Of a stretch of DNA of 64,000 nt, positions 6,598 to 44,355 are shown piece after piece. The stretch is from Kiritimatiellia bacterium (GTDB taxonomy: Bacteria; Verrucomicrobiota; Kiritimatiellia; RZYC01): contig JAQVYB010000001.1 in assembly GCA_028708815.1 (NCBI GenBank), forward strand, positions 13,589 through 77,588, in the 5' to 3' direction. The notes under the pieces were generated by a model. That model was not told the DNA's origin and did not search any database. It worked only from the letters and a program-made list of their open reading frames with translations. The stretch's first letter is position 1. Each line of letters begins with the position of its first letter. A program made the translations under genes and the position numbers.

Positions 6598-7938
6598 TCA
6601 TGCCGGATTGCTTTCCACGGGCTGTCCTTCAGGGATGAAACGGAGGGGTTGGCCGGTGGCCTCGTATACGCCGATCCATTCTTCGCCCTCGGGCTCCACC
6701 TTCTTCTTGGCGGCGACAGCCAATGGAATGGGCAGGTGAACAAAGGAACCATCCCACATGCCGATCAGAATCTGAGTTTTCCCGGCCATGCCGGCATCGA
6801 CGGCCCGCCGGGCCAGTTGATCGCACAGCAGCGCGTCGCCGGTGTTGGCCGGAACACTGCGAATGATATAGCTGGGATCAATGTATTTAAGATTGACCGG
6901 CATCTTTTCTCTCTTGAAGTAAGCCTGAATCTCCTCTTTGAGAAAGATGCCCACGTCCGGATGGCGTTTGTTTCCGGAGGCATCCACCCCAAGCGAAGAT
7001 TCGGGCATCAGATTCAGGGCGGCGCCCTCGGCCACGACGACCACCGCATGACGCTTGCGTTGCAGGCGGGCTTTCAACAGCGGAAGAAAACCGCCCTCGC
7101 CCTCCAGATTGAAAGGTACTTCCGGAATCAGGGTGAAATTCACTTCCTGGCTGGCCAGTGTGGCATGGACGGCGATAAACCCAGATTCGCGGCCCATGAC
7201 CTTGACCAGGCCAATGCCGTTGGGGGCCCCTTTGGCTTCGGCGTGCGCGCAATCCAACACCGCTTTGGCCTGCTCAATGGCGGTGGAAAAGCCGAACGAA
7301 CGGGAGATATACATGATGTCGTTGTCGATGGTTTTTGGAATGCCGACGATGGCTATTTCGGCCCCGCGGCGTTCCACTTCATTGGCCAGATCGCGTGCGC
7401 CGCGCAGGGTGCCGTCGCCCCCGATGCAGATGAGAATGCGTATTCTGCGTGCCATCATAAAATCCACCATGACGCTTACATCCTCGGGGCCCCTCGAGGA
7501 GCCCAGCATGGTGCCGCCTTCCCGGTGGATGTCCTCCACCATCTCGTCTTCCATATCAATCGGCGGAAGTCCTTCGTTTGGATTCAGCCCCTGGAAGCCG
7601 TAGCGTATGCCCAGTACTTTCTTTACGCCGTATTTTCGGAACTGGCGGACCACGGAGCGTATCACGTTGTTCAATCCGGGGCAGAGGCCGCCGCAGGTAA
7701 CGACTGCTGCAGTAATCTGCTGTGGATCGAAATAGATCATTTCCCGCGAGCCGGCCTTTTCGAAAAAGATGCCTTCGTAGGGCGGGATGCCGGTGTTGAA
7801 TTCATTTTGATAGCTTATTTTTGCGTTGTCCGGGGTGAAGTTGCCCACGCCATCGCCGTGCCGGATAGACAACGGAAGCGGAGAGCGCACCGTGCAGACG
7901 CCCAGATTCTTGACGATGAATTGCTCGGGTGTGATCAT
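6598..7938 (-). CDS. pfkA: 6-phosphofructokinase, mixed/long type (ATP- or PPi-dependent PFK)
   Basis: 446 aa. Motifs GGLCPGLNNVIRSVV and ICIGGDGTLRGA are present and match PFK family motifs. Length is typical of the about 440-aa 'mixed' PFK group. Confidence 0.85.
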   Translation of the reverse strand: MITPEQFIVKNLGVCTVRSPLPLSIRHGDGVGNFTPDNAKISYQNEFNTGIPPYEGIFFEKAGSREMIYFDPQQITAAVVTCGGLCPGLNNVIRSVVRQFRKYGVKKVLGIRYGFQGLNPNEGLPPIDMEDEMVEDIHREGGTMLGSSRGPEDVSVMVDFMMARRIRILICIGGDGTLRGARDLANEVERRGAEIAIVGIPKTIDNDIMYISRSFGFSTAIEQAKAVLDCAHAEAKGAPNGIGLVKVMGRESGFIAVHATLASQEVNFTLIPEVPFNLEGEGGFLPLLKARLQRKRHAVVVVAEGAALNLMPESSLGVDASGNKRHPDVGIFLKEEIQAYFKREKMPVNLKYIDPSYIIRSVPANTGDALLCDQLARRAVDAGMAGKTQILIGMWDGSFVHLPIPLAVAAKKKVEPEGEEWIGVYEATGQPLRFIPEGQPVESNPA

Positions 7939-7942
7939 AAGG

Positions 7943-10900
7943 TTATCCCAAGGTTATTTCTATTGAGGCGACATCGCCCTGGCGTATGGCTTGGGCGGTT
8001 TGGGTATTCAGGGTTTCCCCGGAGAATTCCTTGACGACCCCGCCGCGTGTCGTAACGTTGAACCGCACCGGTTTCACGGCTTTTGCGCCAAAGGTGTCGC
8101 GCCGTTTTGGATTGCTGTACGTGATCAGTGTCCCGCCCATGAACATGAAGCTGAAGGTGTTTTTCTCAAAGGAGAGTGGCCTTTCCCGTTCTTCCTTCCA
8201 GAGCGTTTTATCCGTCGGCTTTTCAGTGAAAAGCCACGCAGGCAGTGTGGGAGCTGGTGCAAAGAGCAGGCTGCCGTCCGCGTCCTGACGGAAGGGGGTT
8301 GGCCCGACGGTCATCAGGGAGAGCATGTGGGCGAACTCGGCGGTGGAGCCGCTCAGCCTCGCGAAGAAGCCGGCGCCGTGTATCTGGCTGTCCGGATTGG
8401 CACTGCTGGCGATAAAGGAGGAATTCTCCAAAATGCTTCGTCCATAGACCGCCGGATCCTGAAAGGGGACCAGTACGTTCCGGAAGTGGGTGAAAAATTC
8501 CTTGAGGTGTCCTCCGCGCAGCAGCTCAAGCATATACTTGTATTCCATGTGCATCCAGATGGATTCGTTTTCCAGCCAGCCGCGTGCGAATGTTCGGCAG
8601 CGTCCGATTTCGAGGGCCTCGGCGCTCAGGTCGGCATTTACCTTGAACATCTTCAGTTTGCGGTCGAACAGGTCGCTTTTGCGCACCTGTTGTACGAGTG
8701 CCTGTGCCTGGGCGGAGGGGCCTTCGACCCGTAGGAAGTGAACGGGGCCTTCGAGGAAGAGCGGAAGGGCCCGGTGCCGGATCTTCTGCGGAATAAAGCA
8801 GGGCATTCCTTTTGCGTTGGTTTTGACCACCCGTTTTCCGTTCTTGTCGCGGATATGGATCAGGCTGTGTTTCAGTATTTCCGTTCGGAAATAGGTTTTG
8901 ATTACGCCGGTTTTTGAGTCCATGGCTTTGGCTACCGCTCGGTCGAGCTTGCGCTCGAAGCGTTCCAGCATGGCACCCAGTGATTTGATTTTCAGTCCGG
9001 TTTCAGCACCGTCCAGTCCCATGAGGACGGAACGGCGATAAATTTCTTTCAGCGAGGCGGAGGCATCCCAGTAGCGGAAGTCAGCTTCGGCGCTTTTGTT
9101 TTTCAGATTTTTGATGAGGAGTGCGTCGAGTCCGTTCAGAAATTCCAGCACTTCAACGGGCAGGATGACTTCATGTTCCGGTTCGAGATTCAGGCGCTGA
9201 AGAGCCTGGCGGCAGAAGCGTACAAAGCGCTTCAGTTCGAGGGTTTCGGAGATGCTGGAGCCGAACATGCCGGGCAGTCCATTGAGGGCGTCATACCAGT
9301 TGGGGCGCTCCGATTCCATTTCGATGCCGACGCCCGCCATATCCAACGAGGCCATTTTGCAGGTGATCATGGTGAGTAATTTGGCGAGCAGGTTGGTTTG
9401 GTAGACATCGCCCATGCCGTGCCGTGTCCGTACGGCGTGCTTATCTTTATTGCGGGACTGAATCATTTTTTCCTTGGCCGGATCCTGTGCGACAGCCTCG
9501 AGCTGCATCGGGAGCTCATCCCAGAGGACGTATTTATCGGCCCGCGGGCGTACGACATGGCTGTTGTCGTAGAAGGTGAATTGGCGCGTTTCGATCAGGA
9601 GTTCACGCAGTTTATCCGGGTAGACGGCCAGAAAATTGTCAATCAGGTCGAGGCTGTAGTGCCAGTGATCAGACCAGTAGCTGTGGCCATATCTGGTTTC
9701 CTCACTGCGTTCGCACAGCGGGAGGAGTTCGGCGAGAAAGGTGTCGGTCGATGTTTTCAGATTCACGCCCTCTTGTTGCAGTTTCATACAGAGGTCGCCG
9801 GGGCGGAAGGGGCTGGTTACCAGCGTTTCCAGGCGGGTGGTTTTCCCGGGCGGGACGCAGCTCTTCAGGAGAGTCGAAAGAGCTTTGCCTTTTCTGGCGG
9901 TGAAGGAAGAGGGCATGACCGTCAGTGGGTTAAAACCATCCAGTTGGTTTAGGTTAAAGAAGTGGAGAATATTGTTCATGCCCACATTCGGATTGAGGAG
10001 GACATCCATGCGGCGGTTCTGATTGATGTCGCGGTAAGCGCCGTTGCCCTGAGAGTAGGGGGTGGGGTCGATAAAGAAGGAGTTGTAGTCGCGTTCGAGG
10101 TCGCCGTGGGCCCGGGAATAGACGTGAAAGGTGGTTTTCTTTCCGGCTTTGGAGGAGAAAGTAACCGGGAGTCCGCCGCGCAGGGTGTTGTCCAAAAAGT
10201 TCTGTCGGCAGTAATAATCGAATGGGGGGGAATTGCTGCAGATGAAGTTGTATTGTGAGAGCTGCTCCACGACCCGTTTGCCGATTTCACGCTGTTCGGC
10301 AAAAAAGGAGGCCTGAGCGATTCTTGGAATCAGGCGGTTGAGCATATCGCGGTTGCTGCAGTGCCCCGCAATGGCATAGAAGGTGCCGGTTCGTCCGGGG
10401 GCTGCCGTGAGTTTTACGTGGGCGAGGGCACAGGGCAGGACGTTTTCCAGGCGCTGCGCACCGGGCTTGAACGGGCCTTTCGTCTGGAGAAAGTTTTCAG
10501 GATACGATAGGTCCTGGCGGGCGCCGAAAACACAGGCCGGGTCCACCACGGGGTTGACCAGTTTGGTCTTGCCCCGGTTTTCGGTGAACGCTGCGTAGAA
10601 GTTGCCCCGGGTGATGCGGTGTACCTGTGGGGTATCCATCTGCTTCACCTTGCCTTTGAAGAAAGGCACGTTGTTCTCCAGGTTGACGCATTCGACAAAG
10701 GATTGAACGAGATAGCGCATCTCTTTCAGGTTTTCGTTGTCCACGCCGTAGGGAACCATCAGAGCGAGGCCGTCCAATGCTTCGATCTGCACGGGGTTCT
10801 TGCCGGTATTTTCAATTTGCACGGTTCGCAGGAGGGCGGCAAAGGATTCTTCCGAGGCGGGACTGTAGGAAACTCGGAAATTCAGTCCCAGGGTGGAGTT

Positions 10901-11464
10901 TTGTTCTTCCAGAATCAGCGCATTGGGTTCGATGATCATGCGCTGATTTCGTTTCATTCCGATGTGGGTGATGTGATTCTGGAAGGGTTCATAGAATTCT
11001 GTTTCGCCGTTGCGTGTGATTTTCAGGAAGGTTCTGAAGCCTTGGGTGGGGGTAAGCTGGTAGGCCCTGTTGGCGGAAAGGAACTCCATCATGGACTGAT
11101 GCTTGTCGCCTACGCCCGCGCTTGCAATGCATTGGCCGCGATTCACATAGAATGTCCACATGGGGATGCCGTGCATGCCGGCCACGCCGGGGAAAAAGCT
11201 GGAGAAGGGCTTGGCGTCATTGTATTGCTCGATGATGAACTCTCCGCCTGCGCCCAATTGATACGTGACTGACTTCTCCGACATAAACATCCTCCATGGA
11301 ACTGAATTATTTGCTGTTTTCATGACCCGGATGGCTTGCCATCCGCACGGCCTGGATTTGAAAAAATCGCGATCATAGTAAAACAAGAACTTCAAAATGT
11401 ATAGAATGGAGATTGGAAAAAGTCGCCTTCGGGCGGGTGGCGGCTGAAAATTATCTGTTTTCAA
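7943..11464 (-). CDS. Large (1173 aa) conserved protein of unknown function, cytoplasmic; possibly a glycoside hydrolase/phosphorylase-like alpha/alpha-barrel protein
   Basis: Uninterrupted 3.5 kb ORF with coding-like composition. No signal peptide. I do not recognise the family from sequence alone. Confidence 0.6.
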   Translation of the reverse strand: MKTDNFQPPPARRRLFPISILYILKFLFYYDRDFFKSRPCGWQAIRVMKTANNSVPWRMFMSEKSVTYQLGAGGEFIIEQYNDAKPFSSFFPGVAGMHGIPMWTFYVNRGQCIASAGVGDKHQSMMEFLSANRAYQLTPTQGFRTFLKITRNGETEFYEPFQNHITHIGMKRNQRMIIEPNALILEEQNSTLGLNFRVSYSPASEESFAALLRTVQIENTGKNPVQIEALDGLALMVPYGVDNENLKEMRYLVQSFVECVNLENNVPFFKGKVKQMDTPQVHRITRGNFYAAFTENRGKTKLVNPVVDPACVFGARQDLSYPENFLQTKGPFKPGAQRLENVLPCALAHVKLTAAPGRTGTFYAIAGHCSNRDMLNRLIPRIAQASFFAEQREIGKRVVEQLSQYNFICSNSPPFDYYCRQNFLDNTLRGGLPVTFSSKAGKKTTFHVYSRAHGDLERDYNSFFIDPTPYSQGNGAYRDINQNRRMDVLLNPNVGMNNILHFFNLNQLDGFNPLTVMPSSFTARKGKALSTLLKSCVPPGKTTRLETLVTSPFRPGDLCMKLQQEGVNLKTSTDTFLAELLPLCERSEETRYGHSYWSDHWHYSLDLIDNFLAVYPDKLRELLIETRQFTFYDNSHVVRPRADKYVLWDELPMQLEAVAQDPAKEKMIQSRNKDKHAVRTRHGMGDVYQTNLLAKLLTMITCKMASLDMAGVGIEMESERPNWYDALNGLPGMFGSSISETLELKRFVRFCRQALQRLNLEPEHEVILPVEVLEFLNGLDALLIKNLKNKSAEADFRYWDASASLKEIYRRSVLMGLDGAETGLKIKSLGAMLERFERKLDRAVAKAMDSKTGVIKTYFRTEILKHSLIHIRDKNGKRVVKTNAKGMPCFIPQKIRHRALPLFLEGPVHFLRVEGPSAQAQALVQQVRKSDLFDRKLKMFKVNADLSAEALEIGRCRTFARGWLENESIWMHMEYKYMLELLRGGHLKEFFTHFRNVLVPFQDPAVYGRSILENSSFIASSANPDSQIHGAGFFARLSGSTAEFAHMLSLMTVGPTPFRQDADGSLLFAPAPTLPAWLFTEKPTDKTLWKEERERPLSFEKNTFSFMFMGGTLITYSNPKRRDTFGAKAVKPVRFNVTTRGGVVKEFSGETLNTQTAQAIRQGDVASIEITLG

Positions 11465-11505
11465 AGCGGGGTCGATGAGCTACCATTCTCATTAAAGGAG
11501 AGGCC

Positions 11506-12654
11506 ATGCGCGCGGCGGAATGCACCTGCAGAGAGTTTCTGAATGGGAACATACAGTATGTTGTCCCTTCGTTTCAGCGTCCTTATCGCTGGAAAAAGGA
11601 GCGATGGCAGACGTTTCTGGAGGGGGTCTTGGATTTATGCACGAAGGAGAAGCAGGCGGAAATCTTTTTGGGGGCGATTGCAATCATGCCGATTGATTCA
11701 ACGCCCAAGGGGGTGCAGAAGTATCTTTTGGTGGATGGGCAGCAGCGTTTAATTACGGTGCTGGCCCTGCTGGCGGCGCTGCGGAACTGTGCGCGGGATG
11801 CCGGGTTGGAGCTGGCGGAACGGATCACGCGCGAGTGTTTGATCAACGAAGAGGAAGAATGGAATTACCGGTACAAACTGCTGCCGAAAGAGCCGAATCG
11901 AAAGGTTTTTTTTCATACTTTGGAGAATGAACCGCATCCCGAGGGCGAGCCGATGTTCGGGGCCACGGAGTTTTTCATGGAACAACTCACGCTTACGGAG
12001 CGCCCCGTGGATTATCACCAGCTCTATGATCTCCTGCTGCGCCATTTTATGATTGTGCGCGTGGTGTTGGACAAGGATGAGAATCCCTATCCGATCTTCA
12101 AGAGTCTGAACATGACCGATGATCCGGAGCCGGCGGTGGGGCTGGAGGAGTACCACCGCTTTGCCTCGGATCCGCGTGTTATGGCCCTGATTGCCGGAGG
12201 CGAGTCCCAGCAGTTGGAATTTAAGGAGGCGATTTCAACCTACACCACGGATACGCGCGACGCCGAGCGGCACGGCGCAGCGATTGTCCGGACGGTGGCC
12301 GCGTTCATGAACAGCTCGATTGGCGGGACGCTCCTGATCGGCGTAGCCGATGATGGCAAGGTGAGCGGAATCAACATGGAGTATGAGCGGGTGGACAAAG
12401 GCAAACCCAACTGGGACGGCTATCATCTGCATTTGCGCAACTTGCTGCGTTCGCGTATTTCCATTGAAAATCCCTTCAAGTATTACACCATCACCAAGCA
12501 CATGGTGGATGGAAGGGACATCTGCCGCATTACGGTCAAGCCATCTCCCGCACCGGTCTACATTGACAAGCACCTGTATGTGCGCTCAGGGAATCAAACC
12601 CTGGAGATGCGCGGGCCGGATTTGGTGGAGCATGTGCGTACGCGCTGGCCGTGA
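11506..12654 (+). CDS. DUF262 (GmrSD N-terminal / ParB-like nuclease-NTPase) domain fused to C-terminal Schlafen-like AlbA_2 domain; candidate defence protein
   Basis: N-terminus has YVVPSFQRPYRWKKERW and LLVDGQQRLITV (DGQQR motif of DUF262). C-terminal half has QQLEFKEAIS...AAFMNSSIGGTLLIGVADDGKVSGI (AlbA_2/Schlafen core). Strong RBS AAAGGAGAGG before the ATG. GC is slightly lower than in neighbouring genes. Confidence 0.8.
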   Translation: MRAAECTCREFLNGNIQYVVPSFQRPYRWKKERWQTFLEGVLDLCTKEKQAEIFLGAIAIMPIDSTPKGVQKYLLVDGQQRLITVLALLAALRNCARDAGLELAERITRECLINEEEEWNYRYKLLPKEPNRKVFFHTLENEPHPEGEPMFGATEFFMEQLTLTERPVDYHQLYDLLLRHFMIVRVVLDKDENPYPIFKSLNMTDDPEPAVGLEEYHRFASDPRVMALIAGGESQQLEFKEAISTYTTDTRDAERHGAAIVRTVAAFMNSSIGGTLLIGVADDGKVSGINMEYERVDKGKPNWDGYHLHLRNLLRSRISIENPFKYYTITKHMVDGRDICRITVKPSPAPVYIDKHLYVRSGNQTLEMRGPDLVEHVRTRWP

Positions 12655-12802
12655 TGCTGAAAAGAATGGTTCTCGGGCAGGGCGAAGCCTCCGGCAGAGC
12701 CGGTTGTTTGGCGGGAGGGCTGTCTTGTGTTTGCTCTGGTCTTAGAATTTTCTTTTCATTGGTTGCGGATTCGGGTAGCTCAGGTTGCCATGTGGAGCGA
12801 TT

Positions 12803-12887
12803 GGGCGAGTGGTGAAATTGGCAGACACGCCAGACTTAGGATCTGGTGCTTTACGGCTTGCGGGTTCGAGTCCCGCCTCGCCCACCA
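12803..12887 (+). tRNA. tRNA-Leu (anticodon TAG), 85 nt with long variable arm, CCA encoded
   Basis: Acceptor stem GGGCGAG/CTCGCCC, discriminator A then CCA. T-arm GCGGGTTCGAGTCCCGC. Anticodon stem-loop CCAGA-CTTAGGA-TCTGG gives anticodon TAG. Long variable arm is typical of Leu. Confidence 0.85.
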
Positions 12888-40833: not shown

Positions 40834-43800
40834 TTATTCTGCGAGCGAAACGGCGACCAGATCATCAAGTACGATATACGCATTGGTGGAATCGAAGTTC
40901 TGAAATTCGATATGCGGGTAGACGCCGTAGTGGTAAACGGCGTTGGCATCGGGGATGCCGTGATCCACATCAATGATTTTTTTTCTGTTGTAAAATACCT
41001 TCAGGCGTTTGGCATCCATTTGCACCGCGAGGGGCGCGCCGTCCACATAGGGAGTGTTCGCCGGGAGCCCGAGTTCTTCGCGGTCACCCTGAATGCCGCG
41101 GTGGCGGAAGGGGAGAAATCCGATCTCCTCGTCTGCGCGCCACATTTCCACATAGATGGCCTGGCGAAAATAGTCGTTCCAGATGTTGCCAAAGAAGGGC
41201 TCCGGCATGAAACAGAATTTGGCGCGACCTTCGGTGAAGGCAGAGAGGGTGGCGGCGAGGCCGACCGCGTGTTGTTCATCAAAGCGCAGGCCAAGCGGAT
41301 TCTGATAATCCCGGTAGAGATTCATCCATACGCTTTGGTAGTTTTCGTCATTCGGGAGAAACACGGCGGCGCTGTCCTGGATGAAGGAGGAGGTGCTGCG
41401 GGAGGTGGACCAGGTGCGCAGGATGTTGAGCTGATCGGTCAGGGCACGCAGCATCATCATCTCGGGTGCGTCGTTGAACGTATGGACATACCACGTATCG
41501 GCGGGTGCGTCGATTTGCTGCACGCGCAGGTGGTCGAGTTCCACGAATTGTTCCCGCCCGGGGCGACCCTTGGCGGTAATGACGGCGAGACCGCCTTCGG
41601 GCCAGTCGGCCAGGGCGTATCCGTGGGCGATTGGCTCGGAGGTCCAGTCGCCGTAGATGAGGGAGGCCCCGGATTCGTTCATCTTCAGGATGAATGCCGC
41701 GCCGGGGATGAACGGCATCCAGTCGCTTTCGGTCAGGACGGTTTCTGCGGTGTCCATGGACGATAGGCAGGCTTTGACCCGATTGGTTCCGTCATAGAGT
41801 AAGCGGGCGGCAATGGAGGGCCCAAAGGTGCTCGGAAGGGCATTGGTGATCAAATCCCGGGTGAAGCACAGGCTCAGCTCGGTGCCGGAGGCGTTTTCCT
41901 CGCCGCCAAAGGCAGAGACGGCGGCGGAGAAGAGGCATCCCTCTCCGTTGAGGTTGAAGTGAGCTTCGGTTTCTTTGCGTGATTTGAGGCGCAGTGCGGC
42001 CGGTCCGTCGCCGGTGGCGATGCGGAGTTGCCGGTTGCTGATTGAAAAGGCCTCGGGGCGTCCGACAAGGGTAACCATGTCGCCGCACCAGCCGTAATCG
42101 AGGCGTTTGGTGTCGGGGGCTGCAAAGGTGGTCTGGAAAAGATCGGTGAAGAGGGTTTCTCCGGCGAGTCGGTTTCGGGGTTCAATGACGTGTATAAGGT
42201 GTGCGTTGGGTTGGAAATCGGCGGATTCGAAGGCGTCGAATTTTTCAGCGAGCGTGTCAAAGGAATCGGTTTGCAGGTCCACGAGTTCCGGGGTGTGTGG
42301 GTTGATTCGATATTGGAGGCCCCAGTGATCCCATCCGCGCTCGGGGAATTGGCGGTTGCCCCAGCCGGCTACTTTGAAATTCCAGTGGCACCAGTGAATG
42401 CCGAAGCGGTTGTAGCGGCGCAGGGCATAGTCATAGTTTTCGGGTGCGACGGGCTGAAATTCACCAATGAAGACGGGTACGTTCCGTTCGTTTTGAAAGC
42501 GGACGATGCGTTGGATGTTTTCATCGGCGACATTCTTTTGGGTGAGGACATCGCTGTCTCGCCAGTCGCCATGGGTGGAGTTTAGGGCGTGTTCATAACT
42601 GTGTATTTCGTAGACGACGTTGCTCCAGTTTTCTTTTTGTGGATCCGGGAGTTTGTCAAGAAAGCGGGCGTTCCAGGTCATGTGGGCGTTGTCTTCCATA
42701 AAGATGAGGTGATCGGGATCTTCGGCGCGTATGGCCTCGTACAGGCGACGGTGCAGCGGGAGAATGTATTGATTATATCGGGCGGGGAGTTCGTTGTTCA
42801 TGTCGCTGCTGTGCCACCAGGGGGCGGGTTCGTTGATGAGATCGTAGCCGGCTACGGCGGGATTTCCTTTGTAGTGTCTGGCCACGGCGGCCCAGAGGCG
42901 GACGGTGCGGTCCTGATGCTCCGGGACGTACCAGAGGCGGTTTCGGATGCCTTCCTTGCGCATGCACTGCTCATAATCATTCTGCCCGCCGGGGGTGGCG
43001 TGGAGGTCCAGGATGCAAAACATACCGCGTTTCGCACATTCGGCGACCACCCCGTCGAGGCGCGGGCTCCATTGCTGCTCGGGGAGCATTTCTCCGGCGT
43101 CATTCATGATCAGATCATAATTAAAGGGGAGGCGGATGCAGTTGATTCCGATGGACTGGAGCCAGTCGAGATCGGTGGCGGTGAAATAGGCGTCGCGGTG
43201 GCGCTCGATCAGGGCATTGGCGCGGTCGGCTCTGAAGAAGCGGAGGGAGTGGAGGTTTCCGACATCGCCGACGCCCTTGCCGGTGATGCCGGTGATCCGT
43301 ATGGTGCATGGTCCGGCGGGCAGCAGTGTGCCGTTGTAGATGGCGTATTCTTCGTAATTGTTCCATCCGCCGGAGTTGAAGAGAGGCACTTCGCCGAAGA
43401 GGTGTTGGGCGCCGGAGGCGTCGGTGATTTCAATGCGGAAGCGCCCGTCGTATTCAGGGTGGTCGTTTCCTGTGGCGGCGATGAGGGAAAGGTTGGTGAG
43501 TCCGGCAGGCAGGTTCACATTTTGAAATTCAATGAAGTCGCCGTTGCCGTAGCCGCCGATACCGTCCGGTTGGCAATCATAGGCGATGTTCACGCCGGAT
43601 GTTTTTTGCGCGTTGGTGGCATAGAGGGTGAGTGAGGCATCCACATTATCCACGAGCAGATCATACAGTTCCTCGGCGGAGGCTTTGTTTTCGATATCGA
43701 TCAGGCTGAGGTGCAGGAAGGCGGCGTTGCTGGGGCCGTCGGGATGGCGGGCGACAAGATAGAGGTCGTGCGGGCCGTCGAGGGAGGTAAGGAGGAGTCC

Positions 43801-44355
43801 GCGTGCTTCGGCGTTGTGGCATTCCTCTCCTTTGGAGTAGGCTGTTTCGATGAGGGCCAGAAGCGGGCCGTCCACCGCATCGGCGCGAAGCTCGAAGGTT
43901 CCCGGGACTTCATTGGATTGCACGTAGCGGAAAATATAAGCACCCAAGTAGGTGTTGAACGGGATCTTTTTAAAGCGGAGATAATCGCCGGGGCCGAATC
44001 CGGTGGCCGCTTTCTGCCAACACAGTTCCCGGAGTTCTGTTCCGGAGCCTTCGGCCTGAGCGGGTTCGAGTTCAATCCGGTTGCTTTTGTCTCCTTCGCC
44101 GACAATTCGCCCGAGCTGGTTGAAAAAGCGGTCGGGTTTGAAGCGCTGAATCCATTGTTCCCACGCGAGCCAATTGCCGATGTTTTCGGCCCGCAAGTGG
44201 ACGGTTTGGCCCTCTTCGTTCACAATATCCCCGTTTTCGGCCCGCAGCATGGAGAGTGCGGGGGGGGCATCGGGGGTGGTGGATTCGGCGGAGGCGAATG
44301 CGCCGGTTCCGGCAAAGAGCAGGAAGGCGAGGGAGAGTACAACTCGTGTCAACAT
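40834..44355 (-). CDS. Secreted multidomain glycoside hydrolase family 5 enzyme (1173 aa)
   Basis: Signal peptide MLTRVVLSLAFLLFAGTGAFASA. GH5 catalytic NEP motif (AGYDLINEPAPWW) and upstream FCILDLHATPGGQ. Long N- and C-terminal accessory (CBM/Ig-like) regions. Confidence 0.8.
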   Translation of the reverse strand: MLTRVVLSLAFLLFAGTGAFASAESTTPDAPPALSMLRAENGDIVNEEGQTVHLRAENIGNWLAWEQWIQRFKPDRFFNQLGRIVGEGDKSNRIELEPAQAEGSGTELRELCWQKAATGFGPGDYLRFKKIPFNTYLGAYIFRYVQSNEVPGTFELRADAVDGPLLALIETAYSKGEECHNAEARGLLLTSLDGPHDLYLVARHPDGPSNAAFLHLSLIDIENKASAEELYDLLVDNVDASLTLYATNAQKTSGVNIAYDCQPDGIGGYGNGDFIEFQNVNLPAGLTNLSLIAATGNDHPEYDGRFRIEITDASGAQHLFGEVPLFNSGGWNNYEEYAIYNGTLLPAGPCTIRITGITGKGVGDVGNLHSLRFFRADRANALIERHRDAYFTATDLDWLQSIGINCIRLPFNYDLIMNDAGEMLPEQQWSPRLDGVVAECAKRGMFCILDLHATPGGQNDYEQCMRKEGIRNRLWYVPEHQDRTVRLWAAVARHYKGNPAVAGYDLINEPAPWWHSSDMNNELPARYNQYILPLHRRLYEAIRAEDPDHLIFMEDNAHMTWNARFLDKLPDPQKENWSNVVYEIHSYEHALNSTHGDWRDSDVLTQKNVADENIQRIVRFQNERNVPVFIGEFQPVAPENYDYALRRYNRFGIHWCHWNFKVAGWGNRQFPERGWDHWGLQYRINPHTPELVDLQTDSFDTLAEKFDAFESADFQPNAHLIHVIEPRNRLAGETLFTDLFQTTFAAPDTKRLDYGWCGDMVTLVGRPEAFSISNRQLRIATGDGPAALRLKSRKETEAHFNLNGEGCLFSAAVSAFGGEENASGTELSLCFTRDLITNALPSTFGPSIAARLLYDGTNRVKACLSSMDTAETVLTESDWMPFIPGAAFILKMNESGASLIYGDWTSEPIAHGYALADWPEGGLAVITAKGRPGREQFVELDHLRVQQIDAPADTWYVHTFNDAPEMMMLRALTDQLNILRTWSTSRSTSSFIQDSAAVFLPNDENYQSVWMNLYRDYQNPLGLRFDEQHAVGLAATLSAFTEGRAKFCFMPEPFFGNIWNDYFRQAIYVEMWRADEEIGFLPFRHRGIQGDREELGLPANTPYVDGAPLAVQMDAKRLKVFYNRKKIIDVDHGIPDANAVYHYGVYPHIEFQNFDSTNAYIVLDDLVAVSLAE

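Follow-up and report, generated by a model that had tools for sequence, protein, structure and literature searches.

A DUF262-Schlafen fusion protein from a Kiritimatiellia bacterium: a candidate single-polypeptide sensor-effector of a published class

Background

Fusions of a DUF262 domain to a Schlafen (Slfn) domain make up 1.8% of the 5,930 prokaryotic Schlafens (pSlfns) surveyed by Perez Taboada et al. (bioRxiv 2025; Nat Microbiol 2026; PMC13056530), and one member of this class, EcoSlfn7 from E. coli, protects against T7 and other phages (PMC13056530). A share of 1.8% implies ~107 such proteins. According to the same study, 69.6% of pSlfns are defence-associated and the other 30.4% are not, the latter possibly being non-immune. 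The mean number of defence genes within +/-10 kb is given there as 1.9 for pSlfns, compared with 0.13-0.19 for ribosomal genes. Cash, a fusion of Csx15 and Slfn, cleaves tRNA upon cA4 (PMC13462974); SLFN-pAgo likewise acts in defence. DUF262-Slfn fusions have already been published (2025-26) as a class of phage-defence proteins; their architecture is not new.

Here we describe a gene found in a 64,000-nt stretch of DNA (termed "the window") from a Kiritimatiellia bacterium. An earlier note, made from the letters of this DNA, proposed it as a candidate single-gene defence system and did not recognize its two-domain architecture as a described one; this last statement is superseded by the publication cited above (PMC13056530). 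By its domain composition, the window protein is a member of the DUF262-Slfn class, EcoSlfn7 having been compared by description only.

Results and discussion

Gene and locus

The 382-aa ORF with an ATG start, present in the program-generated ORF list, is a real gene (Table 1). The exact protein is deposited in NCBI (MDD4734481.1/MDD2235661.1) under the title [quoted passage not shown], our searches returned ~100 full-length homologue clusters, and the start is conserved, with M1 nearly invariant in the family alignment. The earlier note was right in assigning the gene its own ribosome-binding site and in placing it between a housekeeping-like gene and a tRNA-Leu. Upstream lies a divergent "cellobiose-phosphorylase-like" gene that is widely conserved; we chose its start at 11284 because the 100%-identical NCBI product (P0277) is 1113 aa long; another large ORF of the window (1173 aa) was considered as its paralogue and rejected on comparison. 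A promoter presumably lies in the divergent intergenic region. We found no sigma-70 consensus in the sequence near the gene, terminator-like hairpins there do not exceed the chance level, and Rfam searches of the surroundings returned no regulatory RNA, the only matches being two tRNAs. The DUF262-Slfn gene stands alone.

Table 1. Features of the DUF262-Schlafen locus (window coordinates)
Feature	Position	Strand	Evidence or remark
CDS of the DUF262-Schlafen fusion protein, 382 aa (NCBI MDD4734481.1)	11506..12654	+	ORF list, homologue clusters, exact record, dN/dS
Shine-Dalgarno AAGGAG, 5 nt 5' of the ATG	11495..11500	+	direct sequence reading
Divergent intergenic region of 221 nt separating the DUF262-Slfn gene from its 1113-aa neighbour; promoter presumed here	11285..11505	.	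neighbour start
GmrSD_N / DUF262 (ParB/Srx-fold) domain, aa 10-204; proposed NTP-dependent sensor/switch	11533..12117	+	Pfam, PADLOC, Foldseek, PDB profile
DGQQR motif, aa 77-81	11734..11748	+	intact in the window protein
Linker / pre-helix of the Slfn module, aa 205-232	12118..12201	+	alignment; conserved F219, D222, P223, M226, A230
Schlafen / AlbA_2 nuclease domain, aa 233-368; proposed RNase effector	12202..12609	+	Pfam, Foldseek
E233-x4-E238-x-K240, predicted catalytic motif	12202..12225	+	invariant; aligns with SLFN11 "ESQSIEFK"
D282 in GGTLLIGVADDG, predicted third catalytic carboxylate	12349..12351	+	invariant; aligns with second D of SLFN11 "GVDD"
tRNA-Leu(UAG), neighbour, outside the system	12803..12887	+	ARAGORN + Rfam

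Domain architecture and predicted active site

Pfam analysis bears out the two-domain architecture proposed in the earlier note as well as the absence of the canonical DUF1524 nuclease: the protein matches GmrSD_N (PF03235, E-value 1.7e-23, 84 bits, cut-off 33) and SLFN_AlbA_2 (PF04326, E-value 2.8e-17, 64 bits, cut-off 25), and it has no match to GmrSD_C/DUF1524 (PF07510) at E ≤ 1. The Schlafen part consists of one AlbA_2 unit of ~150 aa (a single Pfam match), 14 aa past which the protein ends. PADLOC profiles (Orf5, HEC-06, mREase_IV and SspE) cover the N-terminal part alone, with Orf5 as the best match of this domain, and all GmrSD-like profiles match via their first ~200 positions only. 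The AlphaFold model of the fusion protein is confident (pLDDT 89, pTM 0.80; linker 65-82). Foldseek identified DndI (9jfl) and SspE (6jiv/7drs) as the best structural matches of the N-terminal half, for which a PDB profile match to 9jfl (9.6e-17) was also obtained, while the C-terminal half matches 3lmm, SLFN11 (7fex), SLFN13 (5yd0) and SAMD9 (7ksp/9o0d), the last being a tRNase, as well as SLFN5, SLFN12 and SLFN14.

Both the DGQQR motif and the Schlafen acidic residues are intact. In the alignment of 56 diverse family members D77, G78 and R81 of the DGQQR motif are invariant and both Q positions are variable; a conserved QR motif is also present in the DUF262 domain. R81 aligns with R100 of SspE, which is the residue mutated in a deposited structure (SspE-R100A, 7drr). 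The predicted catalytic residues of the Schlafen domain, namely E233, E238 and K240 together with D282, are invariant across the same 56 sequences, and the first three fit the Ex4(E/D)xK motif defined for prokaryotic Slfn proteins (PMC13056530). The linker aligns with the SLFN11 residues that precede ESQSIEFK, and it accompanies the Slfn module when the latter is fused to other partners; matches to such fusions run from profile position ~193 onward.

Family, distribution and selection

Among 185,579 species genomes the family was found at 44 loci only, a sparse distribution that indicates an accessory gene. The window copy is part of a small clade of short forms that is nearly confined to Verrucomicrobiota, Kiritimatiellia and Lentisphaerae. 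Compared with its orthologue in the closest relative (locus L001), the gene shows a dN/dS of 0.05, close to the 0.04 of a nearby PFK gene, and the protein is 86% identical (PFK: 84%); both halves of the fusion protein are under strong purifying selection. Within the family the sensor half has diverged more rapidly than the effector half (mean pairwise identity of 37% vs 55%), the same pattern as reported for pSlfn5 (PMC13056530). Elsewhere the Slfn module is joined to different N-terminal domains, among them trypsin-like, Eco57I/MmeI-methylase and unassigned ones, and the nearest DUF262 domains outside the family belong to canonical GmrSD_N+GmrSD_C enzymes.

Comparison with described systems

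The window protein and EcoSlfn7 share a DUF262 domain and a Slfn nuclease with the Ex4(E/D)xK motif in one polypeptide, encoded by a single-gene system, in which the Slfn domain is the presumed effector and the fused domain the presumed sensor. EcoSlfn7, however, comes from E. coli, was picked for its defence-gene neighbours and is phage-protective, whereas the window protein belongs to a PVC-restricted clade found in housekeeping contexts. Our homologue searches found no enterobacterial relative. A match on an E. coli plasmid (H11) was rejected as a relative; it is a disrupted ordinary GmrSD in a restriction-modification (R-M) island.

The homologous N-terminal DUF262 domain of GmrSD and BrxU carries the QR and DGQQR motifs, as in the window protein. 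GmrSD and BrxU end, however, in a DUF1524/GmrSD_C His-Me finger nuclease, in place of which the window protein has an AlbA_2/Schlafen domain; since this C-terminus is a Schlafen RNase domain, the predicted target is RNA rather than the modified DNA attacked by GmrSD and BrxU. The phosphorothioate-sensing DUF262 effectors SspE and DndI resemble the N-terminal half most closely in structure, and R81 of the window protein has its counterpart in R100 of SspE, yet the window gene has no adjoining sspBCD or dndBCDE genes, and its product has no DUF1524 nicking domain and is about half their size.

Long-form GmrSD-Slfn proteins of ~710 aa (S. meliloti pSymA WQO97353.1; Haloquadratum PL100 WP_014554916.1) have, like the window family, DUF262 at the N-terminus and, at the very C-terminal end, a Slfn module; identity between the Slfn halves is 35%. 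They differ by ~330 extra residues, which include a weak GmrSD_C match, and by their location in defence islands on plasmids, whereas the window family is short, chromosomal and GC-ameliorated. The long forms are at least 78% identical across phyla, which indicates horizontal transfer; a blastn search of 5,426 E. coli genomes with the mobile long form gave no match.

On the effector side, RorSlfn5 (Ig-like-Slfn) and Cash have the fold and motif of the window protein, and trigger-activated tRNA cleavage has been demonstrated for both; their sensors differ from DUF262, and the known triggers are a phage tail chaperone and cA4, respectively. Eukaryotic SLFN11 and SLFN13 match in fold, and their E-x4-E-x-K / D site aligns with that of the window protein, but they possess a two-lobed core, a linker and a helicase, as opposed to a single AlbA_2 unit. 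Regulators of the DIP2311 type (AlbA_2-HATPase_c_4-HTH) carry HATPase_c_4 and a wHTH after AlbA_2, neither of which Pfam detected in the window protein.

Genomic context and mobility

In ~30 sampled lineages the homologues lie amid housekeeping genes, outside defence islands. Among ~130 Pfam-labelled neighbour genes from 9 lineages there is no R-M, Abi, TA, CRISPR, integrase or transposase gene, the lone exception being one ResIII/DEAD helicase at the edge of a locus. The 124 neighbours from 24 further loci yielded a handful of singleton PADLOC matches (among them one SspB-like, one PDC-S02 and one SNF2/DrmD-like), two of which are at a single non-PVC locus (L041), and the 10 neighbours of the window gene itself gave no real PADLOC match and no Ssp or Dnd match. 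Association with defence genes, a supporting criterion of the pSlfn class, was thus not seen for the window gene or the sampled loci of its family. Defence-like neighbourhoods were found for the long forms and for a distant gammaproteobacterial short form; they contain either type I R-M, Abi and RES genes or a TIR/ThsB-like gene. A conserved hidden partner gene was also considered and rejected: in an all-against-all BLAST of the neighbours, sharing was confined to sister loci, and each Pfam family is represented in 3 of the 124 at most. Co-transcription with housekeeping genes is suggested in several lineages, where such genes precede it on its own strand at a distance of 2-9 nt.

The earlier note pointed to tRNA loci as integration hotspots and to a GC content lower than that of the neighbours, and neither argument held. 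The gene has a GC content of 0.555, the window one of 0.563 and the upstream gene one of 0.548, and family members have ameliorated to the GC of their hosts over a range of 34-75%; the argument from low GC to horizontal acquisition was therefore rejected. The position of the gene is 5' of the tRNA-Leu, no att-like repeat of the tRNA 3' end was found, and no integrase or transposase occurs among the Pfam-labelled neighbours within 10 kb. The adjacency to tRNA-Leu is kept at two loci (L002 and L045) and absent from L001 and other lineages, so the tRNA was rejected as an integration site or a functional link. Synteny is conserved at the species level, and the L002/L045 site diverges as much as the flanking genes, while among lineages the genomic location varies. 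The 1113-aa neighbour was considered as an anchor for an empty site; its next relatives are just 53% identical, and synteny is gone. Thus, none of the marks of a tRNA-integrated genomic island (integrase, att repeat, compositional deviation, variable presence at the site) was observed. Full-length relatives on plasmids or phages were not found by tblastn, and prophage or viral carriage was rejected, as the family is absent from the 2.9 M viral contigs of IMG/VR. The PVC-clade protein is a long-resident chromosomal gene product rather than an island-borne one.

Proposed function and alternatives

On balance, we favour the view that the window protein is a single-polypeptide sensor-effector of the DUF262-Schlafen class. 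By analogy to GmrSD, BrxU, SspE and DndI on the one hand and to RorSlfn5, Cash and SLFN11 on the other, a tRNA-cleaving Schlafen effector under the control of an NTP-dependent DUF262 sensor appears the most likely arrangement. The DUF262 domain would bind and hydrolyse NTP and sense a nucleic-acid cue, e.g. modified or foreign DNA; this would turn on the Schlafen domain, which would cut tRNA, probably in the anticodon arm, and the resulting arrest of translation would limit phage replication in a manner similar to abortive infection. The domains and motifs, the fold matches, the modularity of the Slfn part, the divergence pattern, the defence contexts of the long forms and the sparse distribution speak for this view; the housekeeping contexts, the absence of viral or plasmid carriage, the ameliorated GC, the PFK-like conservation, the variable glutamines of DGQQR and the 30.4% of non-defence pSlfns (PMC13056530) speak against it or against an immune role. 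An immune role for the PVC clade is plausible. The earlier proposal of a defence gene is supported in part; the note itself had named consistently housekeeping contexts of the homologues as evidence to the contrary, and such contexts are largely what ~30 lineages of this clade display.

Less probable, but to be taken seriously, is a domesticated, non-immune role as a lineage-specific regulated RNase, whose DUF262 NTPase would sense the nucleotide or DNA state of the cell and tune tRNA or rRNA pools under stress rather than respond to phage, in likeness to the tRNA cleavage by SLFN11 that is triggered by DNA damage. The occurrence in housekeeping contexts in every PVC lineage sampled, the short same-strand gaps to housekeeping genes, the species-level synteny, the low dN/dS, the full GC amelioration and the non-defence share of pSlfns (PMC13056530) would fit such a role; against it speak the sparse distribution, the varying genomic location, the lack of a conserved functional partner or pathway among the neighbours and the immune function of all prokaryotic Slfn fusions characterized so far. 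Slightly more doubtful is the specific version in which the PVC short form descends from an immune tRNase, was inherited vertically in housekeeping operons, lacks the GmrSD DNase, and now regulates tRNA pools or translation in uninfected cells by sensing NTP or DNA state. The weight of the contexts is lessened by the fact that many true single-gene defence genes and type IV restriction genes are located outside islands.

We regard as unlikely that the protein is a DNase resembling type IV restriction enzymes, in which Schlafen/AlbA_2 would replace DUF1524 in cutting or binding DNA, with modified phage DNA and not tRNA as the target. The kinship of the N-terminal domain to canonical GmrSD enzymes agrees with this idea, as do the ability of AlbA_2 folds to bind DNA (the SAMD9 AlbA_2-DNA complex 7ksp is among the structural matches), the description of SLFN5-N as DNA binding and the joining of DUF262, weak GmrSD_C and Slfn in the long forms; yet the conserved Ex4ExK/D site is the tRNase site of SLFN11/13 and of pSlfns with demonstrated RNA cleavage, and the long forms have Slfn in addition to the DNase, not in its place, which suggests a distinct activity. 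Least probable is a regulator that binds nucleic acid without catalysis, for example a DUF262 transcription factor akin to DndB with AlbA_2 as its DNA-binding domain. NCBI titles of homologues ("putative DNA binding domain-containing protein", "ATP-binding protein") and the match to 3lmm, which comes from a regulator-like architecture, would accord with it, but the catalytic residues E/E/K/D are invariant in the family, Pfam detects no HTH or HATPase_c_4 domain, and no target operon is conserved beside the gene.

Conclusion

As the architecture has already been published, the gain is incremental either way. If the window protein serves in defence, the immune family of Schlafen tRNases would come to include Verrucomicrobiota, Kiritimatiellia and Lentisphaerae, about whose immune repertoires little is known, and the protein, a minimal DUF262-Slfn fusion of 382 aa without a DNase, would be of use in studying the gating of an RNase by a GmrSD-type NTPase sensor. 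A non-immune protein would instead be a tractable example of those prokaryotic Schlafens that lie outside islands and are so far unexplained; and if it is indeed a domesticated regulator, it would be a bacterial parallel to the DNA-damage response of SLFN11 and would cleanly represent the ~30% of prokaryotic Schlafens without a link to defence.

Domain architecture and class assignment

A Pfam scan of the 382-aa protein returned GmrSD_N and SLFN_AlbA_2, both with scores well over the gathering cut-offs, and no match to GmrSD_C/DUF1524. The HMM check thus bears out the two-domain fusion proposed in the earlier note, together with its observation that the canonical DUF1524 partner is replaced; the gene also has a ribosome-binding site of its own, as that note read it, whereas the "somewhat lower GC" fails against the values obtained (gene 0.555, window 0.563, upstream gene 0.548). 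PADLOC GmrSD-like profiles (Orf5, HEC-06, mREase_IV and SspE) align by the first ~200 positions only. The best PADLOC match of the N-terminal domain (window 11506-12117) is PDLC02693 "Orf5", a profile of 543-aa DUF262 proteins (5.5e-47). NCBIfam has no model for the window protein, and the identical deposited sequence (MDD4734481.1/MDD2235661.1) is named [quoted passage not shown], so that only the N-terminal domain is named in its annotation.

Features of the DUF262-Slfn locus and of relatives (window coordinates, protein residues marked aa, or coordinates within the relative's own locus)
Feature	Position	Strand	Remarks
DUF262-Slfn CDS	11506..12654	+	ATG-initiated ORF, 382 aa
Shine-Dalgarno AAGGAG	5 nt 5' of DUF262-Slfn ATG	+	sequence reading
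GmrSD_N (DUF262, PF03235)	aa 10-204		Pfam E 1.7e-23
SLFN_AlbA_2 (PF04326)	aa 233-368		Pfam E 2.8e-17
tRNA-Leu(UAG)	12803..12887	+	same strand, downstream of DUF262-Slfn
1113-aa neighbour	7943-11284	-	divergent; no Pfam match
1173-aa ORF	40834-44355	-	unrelated to equal-length 7943..11464 ORF; BLASTP E 0.8
Long form L060	8381-10516		S. meliloti pSymA; ~710 aa
Long form L061	8360-10486		Haloquadratum walsbyi PL100; ~710 aa
Short-form relative L041	7881-11050		MAG MFD00905.bin.3.287; second copy at L043

An AlphaFold2 model built from 56 family members is confident (mean pLDDT 89.2, pTM 0.80) and softer in the inter-domain linker only. In Foldseek comparisons with the PDB its N-terminal half resembles the DUF262 proteins DndI (9jfl) and SspE (6jiv, 7drs), and its C-terminal half resembles DIP2311 (3lmm), SLFN11, SLFN13, SLFN5, SLFN12, SLFN14 and the AlbA_2/tRNase domain of SAMD9. 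A profile search of PDB sequences pairs the family motifs "GGESxxxEFK" and "GGTLLIGVxDDG" with SLFN11 "PESQSIEFK" and "GGSLFIGVDD", and R81 of DGQQR with R100 of SspE. None of the 56 aligned sequences departs from E233, E238, F239, K240, D282, D77, G78 or R81, so that the predicted RNase site (E233/E238/K240/D282) is intact and the core of the ParB-like NTP-binding motif (D77/G78/R81) is retained; many members carry NH, NQ, TQ or HH in place of the glutamine pair of DGQQR.

Perez Taboada et al. (bioRxiv July 2025, Nat Microbiol March 2026, PMC13056530) catalogued 5,930 prokaryotic Schlafens with a conserved Ex4(E/D)xK motif in 55 domain compositions, with DUF262 fusions at 1.8%. An E. coli member, EcoSlfn7, protected against T7 and other phages in their work. 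The earlier view that no such defence system is described no longer holds: the architecture is known already and the headline novelty is pre-empted. Judged by domain composition, the window protein belongs to the published DUF262-Slfn class, as it has both the Slfn motif and the DUF262 fusion; the supporting association with a defence island was not found. Lacking both the DUF1524 nuclease and the linkage to modification genes that define these enzymes, it is neither of the GmrSD/BrxU nor of the SspE/DndI kind, and it is not of the eukaryotic two-lobed SLFN type. Two other 2026 papers describe Schlafen effectors, in type III CRISPR signalling (Cash, PMC13462974) and in fusion with Argonaute, and Schlafen RNases are named among the common backup effectors in a survey of BREX.

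Relatives and distribution

A word-indexed search of 5.8 billion proteins found ~100 clusters of 372-430 aa that share this two-domain layout and are 36-86% identical, the named ones from Verrucomicrobiota, Kiritimatiellae and Marinimicrobia MAGs. When 1.84 billion representatives were searched exhaustively with HMMER, about a dozen matches at 50% clustering were end-to-end, after which scores fell steeply to single-domain matches. One genome each of 185,579 species yielded 44 loci, nearly all from Verrucomicrobiota, Kiritimatiellia or Lentisphaerae, and a few from Planctomycetota, Marinimicrobia, Chloroflexota and one gammaproteobacterial MAG (taxonomic labels of MAGs are the submitters' own). 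The patchiness of the family is inferred from this one-genome-per-species scan. No relative was found among 2.9 million viral contigs, and no full-length one on plasmids or phages.

The Slfn half of the query also matches plasmid proteins annotated as DUF262, in S. meliloti pSymA (WQO97353.1, 711 aa) and Haloquadratum PL100 (WP_014554916.1, 708 aa), which are 35% identical to the window protein in that half. In this long form GmrSD_N is followed by ~330 residues, which only in Haloquadratum include a weak match to GmrSD_C, and then by Slfn at the extreme C-terminus. The window family is thus a short form without the DNase region. The two long forms lie in obvious defence islands, with a recombinase, a RES toxin and a type I R-M system with an embedded Abi gene nearby in S. 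meliloti, and a restriction endonuclease and methyltransferases in Haloquadratum. Long forms from Alpha- and Betaproteobacteria and Acidobacteria share at least 78% identity, which indicates that they spread horizontally not long ago. The long form is plasmid-borne, situated in defence islands and horizontally spread, in contrast to the short form of the window.

The nearest DUF262 domains outside the family belong to canonical GmrSD_N+GmrSD_C enzymes of 550-840 aa. The nearest Slfn modules are joined to a trypsin-like peptidase, an Eco57I/MmeI-type methyltransferase (1109 aa) or unannotated N-terminal domains; in such methyltransferase, peptidase and unannotated fusions (P0132, P0164/P0156/P0168/P0133 and P0131/P0140/P0219) the module is accompanied by a conserved pre-helix. 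Together with the GmrSD-type DUF262 relatives, these fusions show a pattern of "conserved effector, swappable sensor". The peptidase fusion is exemplified by Mesorhizobium WP_244621708.1, and the unannotated domains measure ~230 aa. Mean identity across the family is 37% in the DUF262 half versus 55% in the Slfn half; a sensor diverging faster than its effector was reported for pSlfn5 (PMC13056530).

Synteny, selection and neighbourhoods

Collinearity with a second species (L002/L045) extends over ~20 kb of the window, in the order alpha-amylase-like, Phos_pyr_kin, ComEC, PFK, 1113-aa protein, DUF262-Slfn, tRNA-Leu, two pseudopilins, sigma-54 regulator, GspF and GspE. DUF262-Slfn is 86% identical between the two, a value like that of PFK (84%) or of the regulator, GspF and GspE (88-89%); ComEC at 56%, the pilins at 66-68% and the 1113-aa neighbour at 71% are much less conserved. 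In comparison with L001, which is the closest relative at 93% aa identity, the whole gene has a dN/dS of 0.051, its DUF262 half 0.064 and its Slfn half 0.038, as against 0.042 for PFK and 0.088 for the 1113-aa gene; both halves are under strong purifying selection. The block common to the window and L001 comprises only PFK, the 1113-aa gene and DUF262-Slfn (window 6623-12678, L001 5117-11173). Collinearity ends 24 nt past the DUF262-Slfn stop codon and just beyond PFK, so rearrangement breakpoints flank these three genes.

The position between a housekeeping-like gene and tRNA-Leu holds in the window and not in L001, where alanyl-tRNA synthetase lies 3' of DUF262-Slfn and tRNA-Leu and the pilins are missing. 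An island integrated at the tRNA, at which the earlier note hinted, finds no support: the gene lies 5' of the tRNA, the window holds no att-like copy of the tRNA 3' end, and L001 has no tRNA there. The 1113-aa protein is one of a large family whose members, from many phyla, are conserved at ~50% identity; one of them is named "cellobiose phosphorylase" in UniRef, and in distant relatives a GH35 beta-galactosidase gene comes directly after it. The 1173-aa ORF at 40834-44355 was rejected as a paralogue of 7943..11464, the equal length being coincidental.

PADLOC matches of the window's ten neighbours are generic only (GlgB and sigma-54 AAA). Elsewhere the neighbours differ wholly between lineages and are housekeeping-like: a radical-SAM enzyme with HSP20, IlvD, ECF sigma factors, CdaA/CoaBC/phosphodiesterase, a metallo-beta-lactamase-fold protein, an ABC transporter, GalK/SpoU/LpxD or asparagine synthase/GDPD. 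Among ~130 such neighbours we found no R-M, Abi, TA, CRISPR, integrase or transposase gene, save one ResIII/DEAD helicase at a locus edge. Our neighbour counts span +/-3 genes for some sources and +/-10 kb for others and are not strictly comparable to the published metric. By that metric, 69.6% of pSlfn genes lie at most 10 kb from a defence gene, and the remaining 30.4% may be non-immune or in unannotated hot spots (PMC13056530). In 24 further loci, with 124 neighbours called by us (for L001-L044 neighbour genes are our own simple ORF picks), no Pfam family occurs in more than three neighbours, and BLAST clustering shows sharing between sister loci only. Their PADLOC matches at E<1e-10 are singletons (SspB-like, 3e-79, PDC-S02, 3e-140, and one SNF2/DrmD/PLD-helicase-like protein in alignment set A2; TIR/ThsB-like; PDC-S03) plus generic RmuC and LolE-like ones. 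SspB beside a DUF262 protein could hint at phosphorothioate sensing.

Position is fixed within species: one relative (P0014), for which 15 contigs were read, has identical genes upstream of it in at least four places, and another (P0059) occurs in three places and 6 further similar ones (24 contigs read). In the latter lineage, Kiritimatiellia from animal guts (L053/L054/L055), DUF262-Slfn begins 2 nt after same-strand genes for Metallophos, CdaA (the c-di-AMP synthase), an unannotated protein, CoaBC and a nucleotide pyrophosphatase/phosphodiesterase, an order that suggests co-transcription with nucleotide-metabolism genes.

In PVC loci the GC of the gene tracks that of its host over a range of 34% to 75%. 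L041/L043 (30% versus ~50%) and an Anaerolineae copy (43% versus 52%) depart from this and look recently acquired. L041, a 27%-identical gammaproteobacterial relative (gene 30%, locus 51%), is flanked by TIR and PDC-S03 genes, lying just downstream of the TIR/ThsB-like gene (PADLOC 4e-38) and the PDC-S03 candidate; in contrast to the PVC members, it seems to be a recent acquisition within a defence island. Homologues of the PVC clade lie largely in the housekeeping contexts that the earlier note named, beside a missing phage phenotype, as counting against its reading.

Possible function

The DUF262 module of GmrSD/BrxU, SspE and DndI binds and hydrolyses NTP and links the recognition of modified DNA to the nuclease attached to it, and the Schlafen site of RorSlfn5, Cash and SLFN11/13 cleaves tRNA when a fused sensor is triggered. 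From these established activities, the most likely mechanism is that DUF262 would sense a nucleic-acid cue in an NTP-dependent manner and release the Schlafen RNase, which would cut tRNA and stall translation. As DUF1524 is missing, the predicted Schlafen RNase is the only candidate catalytic effector. We lean, with some reserve, towards such a sensor-effector role related to biological conflict. Our analysis established the domain identities, the intact catalytic and NTP-motif residues, the stand-alone gene and strong purifying selection in each half. A less probable reading, to which we would give about half that weight, is a regulated RNase that has been domesticated for a non-immune role, as the housekeeping contexts and vertical inheritance would favour. 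We regard a DNA-directed, type IV-like activity as improbable; a non-catalytic binder, set beside the conserved catalytic residues, seems more improbable still.

What is new here is a PVC-restricted, chromosomally stable short form of a known class. The find is real and makes biological sense, and the interest that is left lies in the contrast between its immune-type architecture and its thoroughly housekeeping-like evolutionary behaviour.
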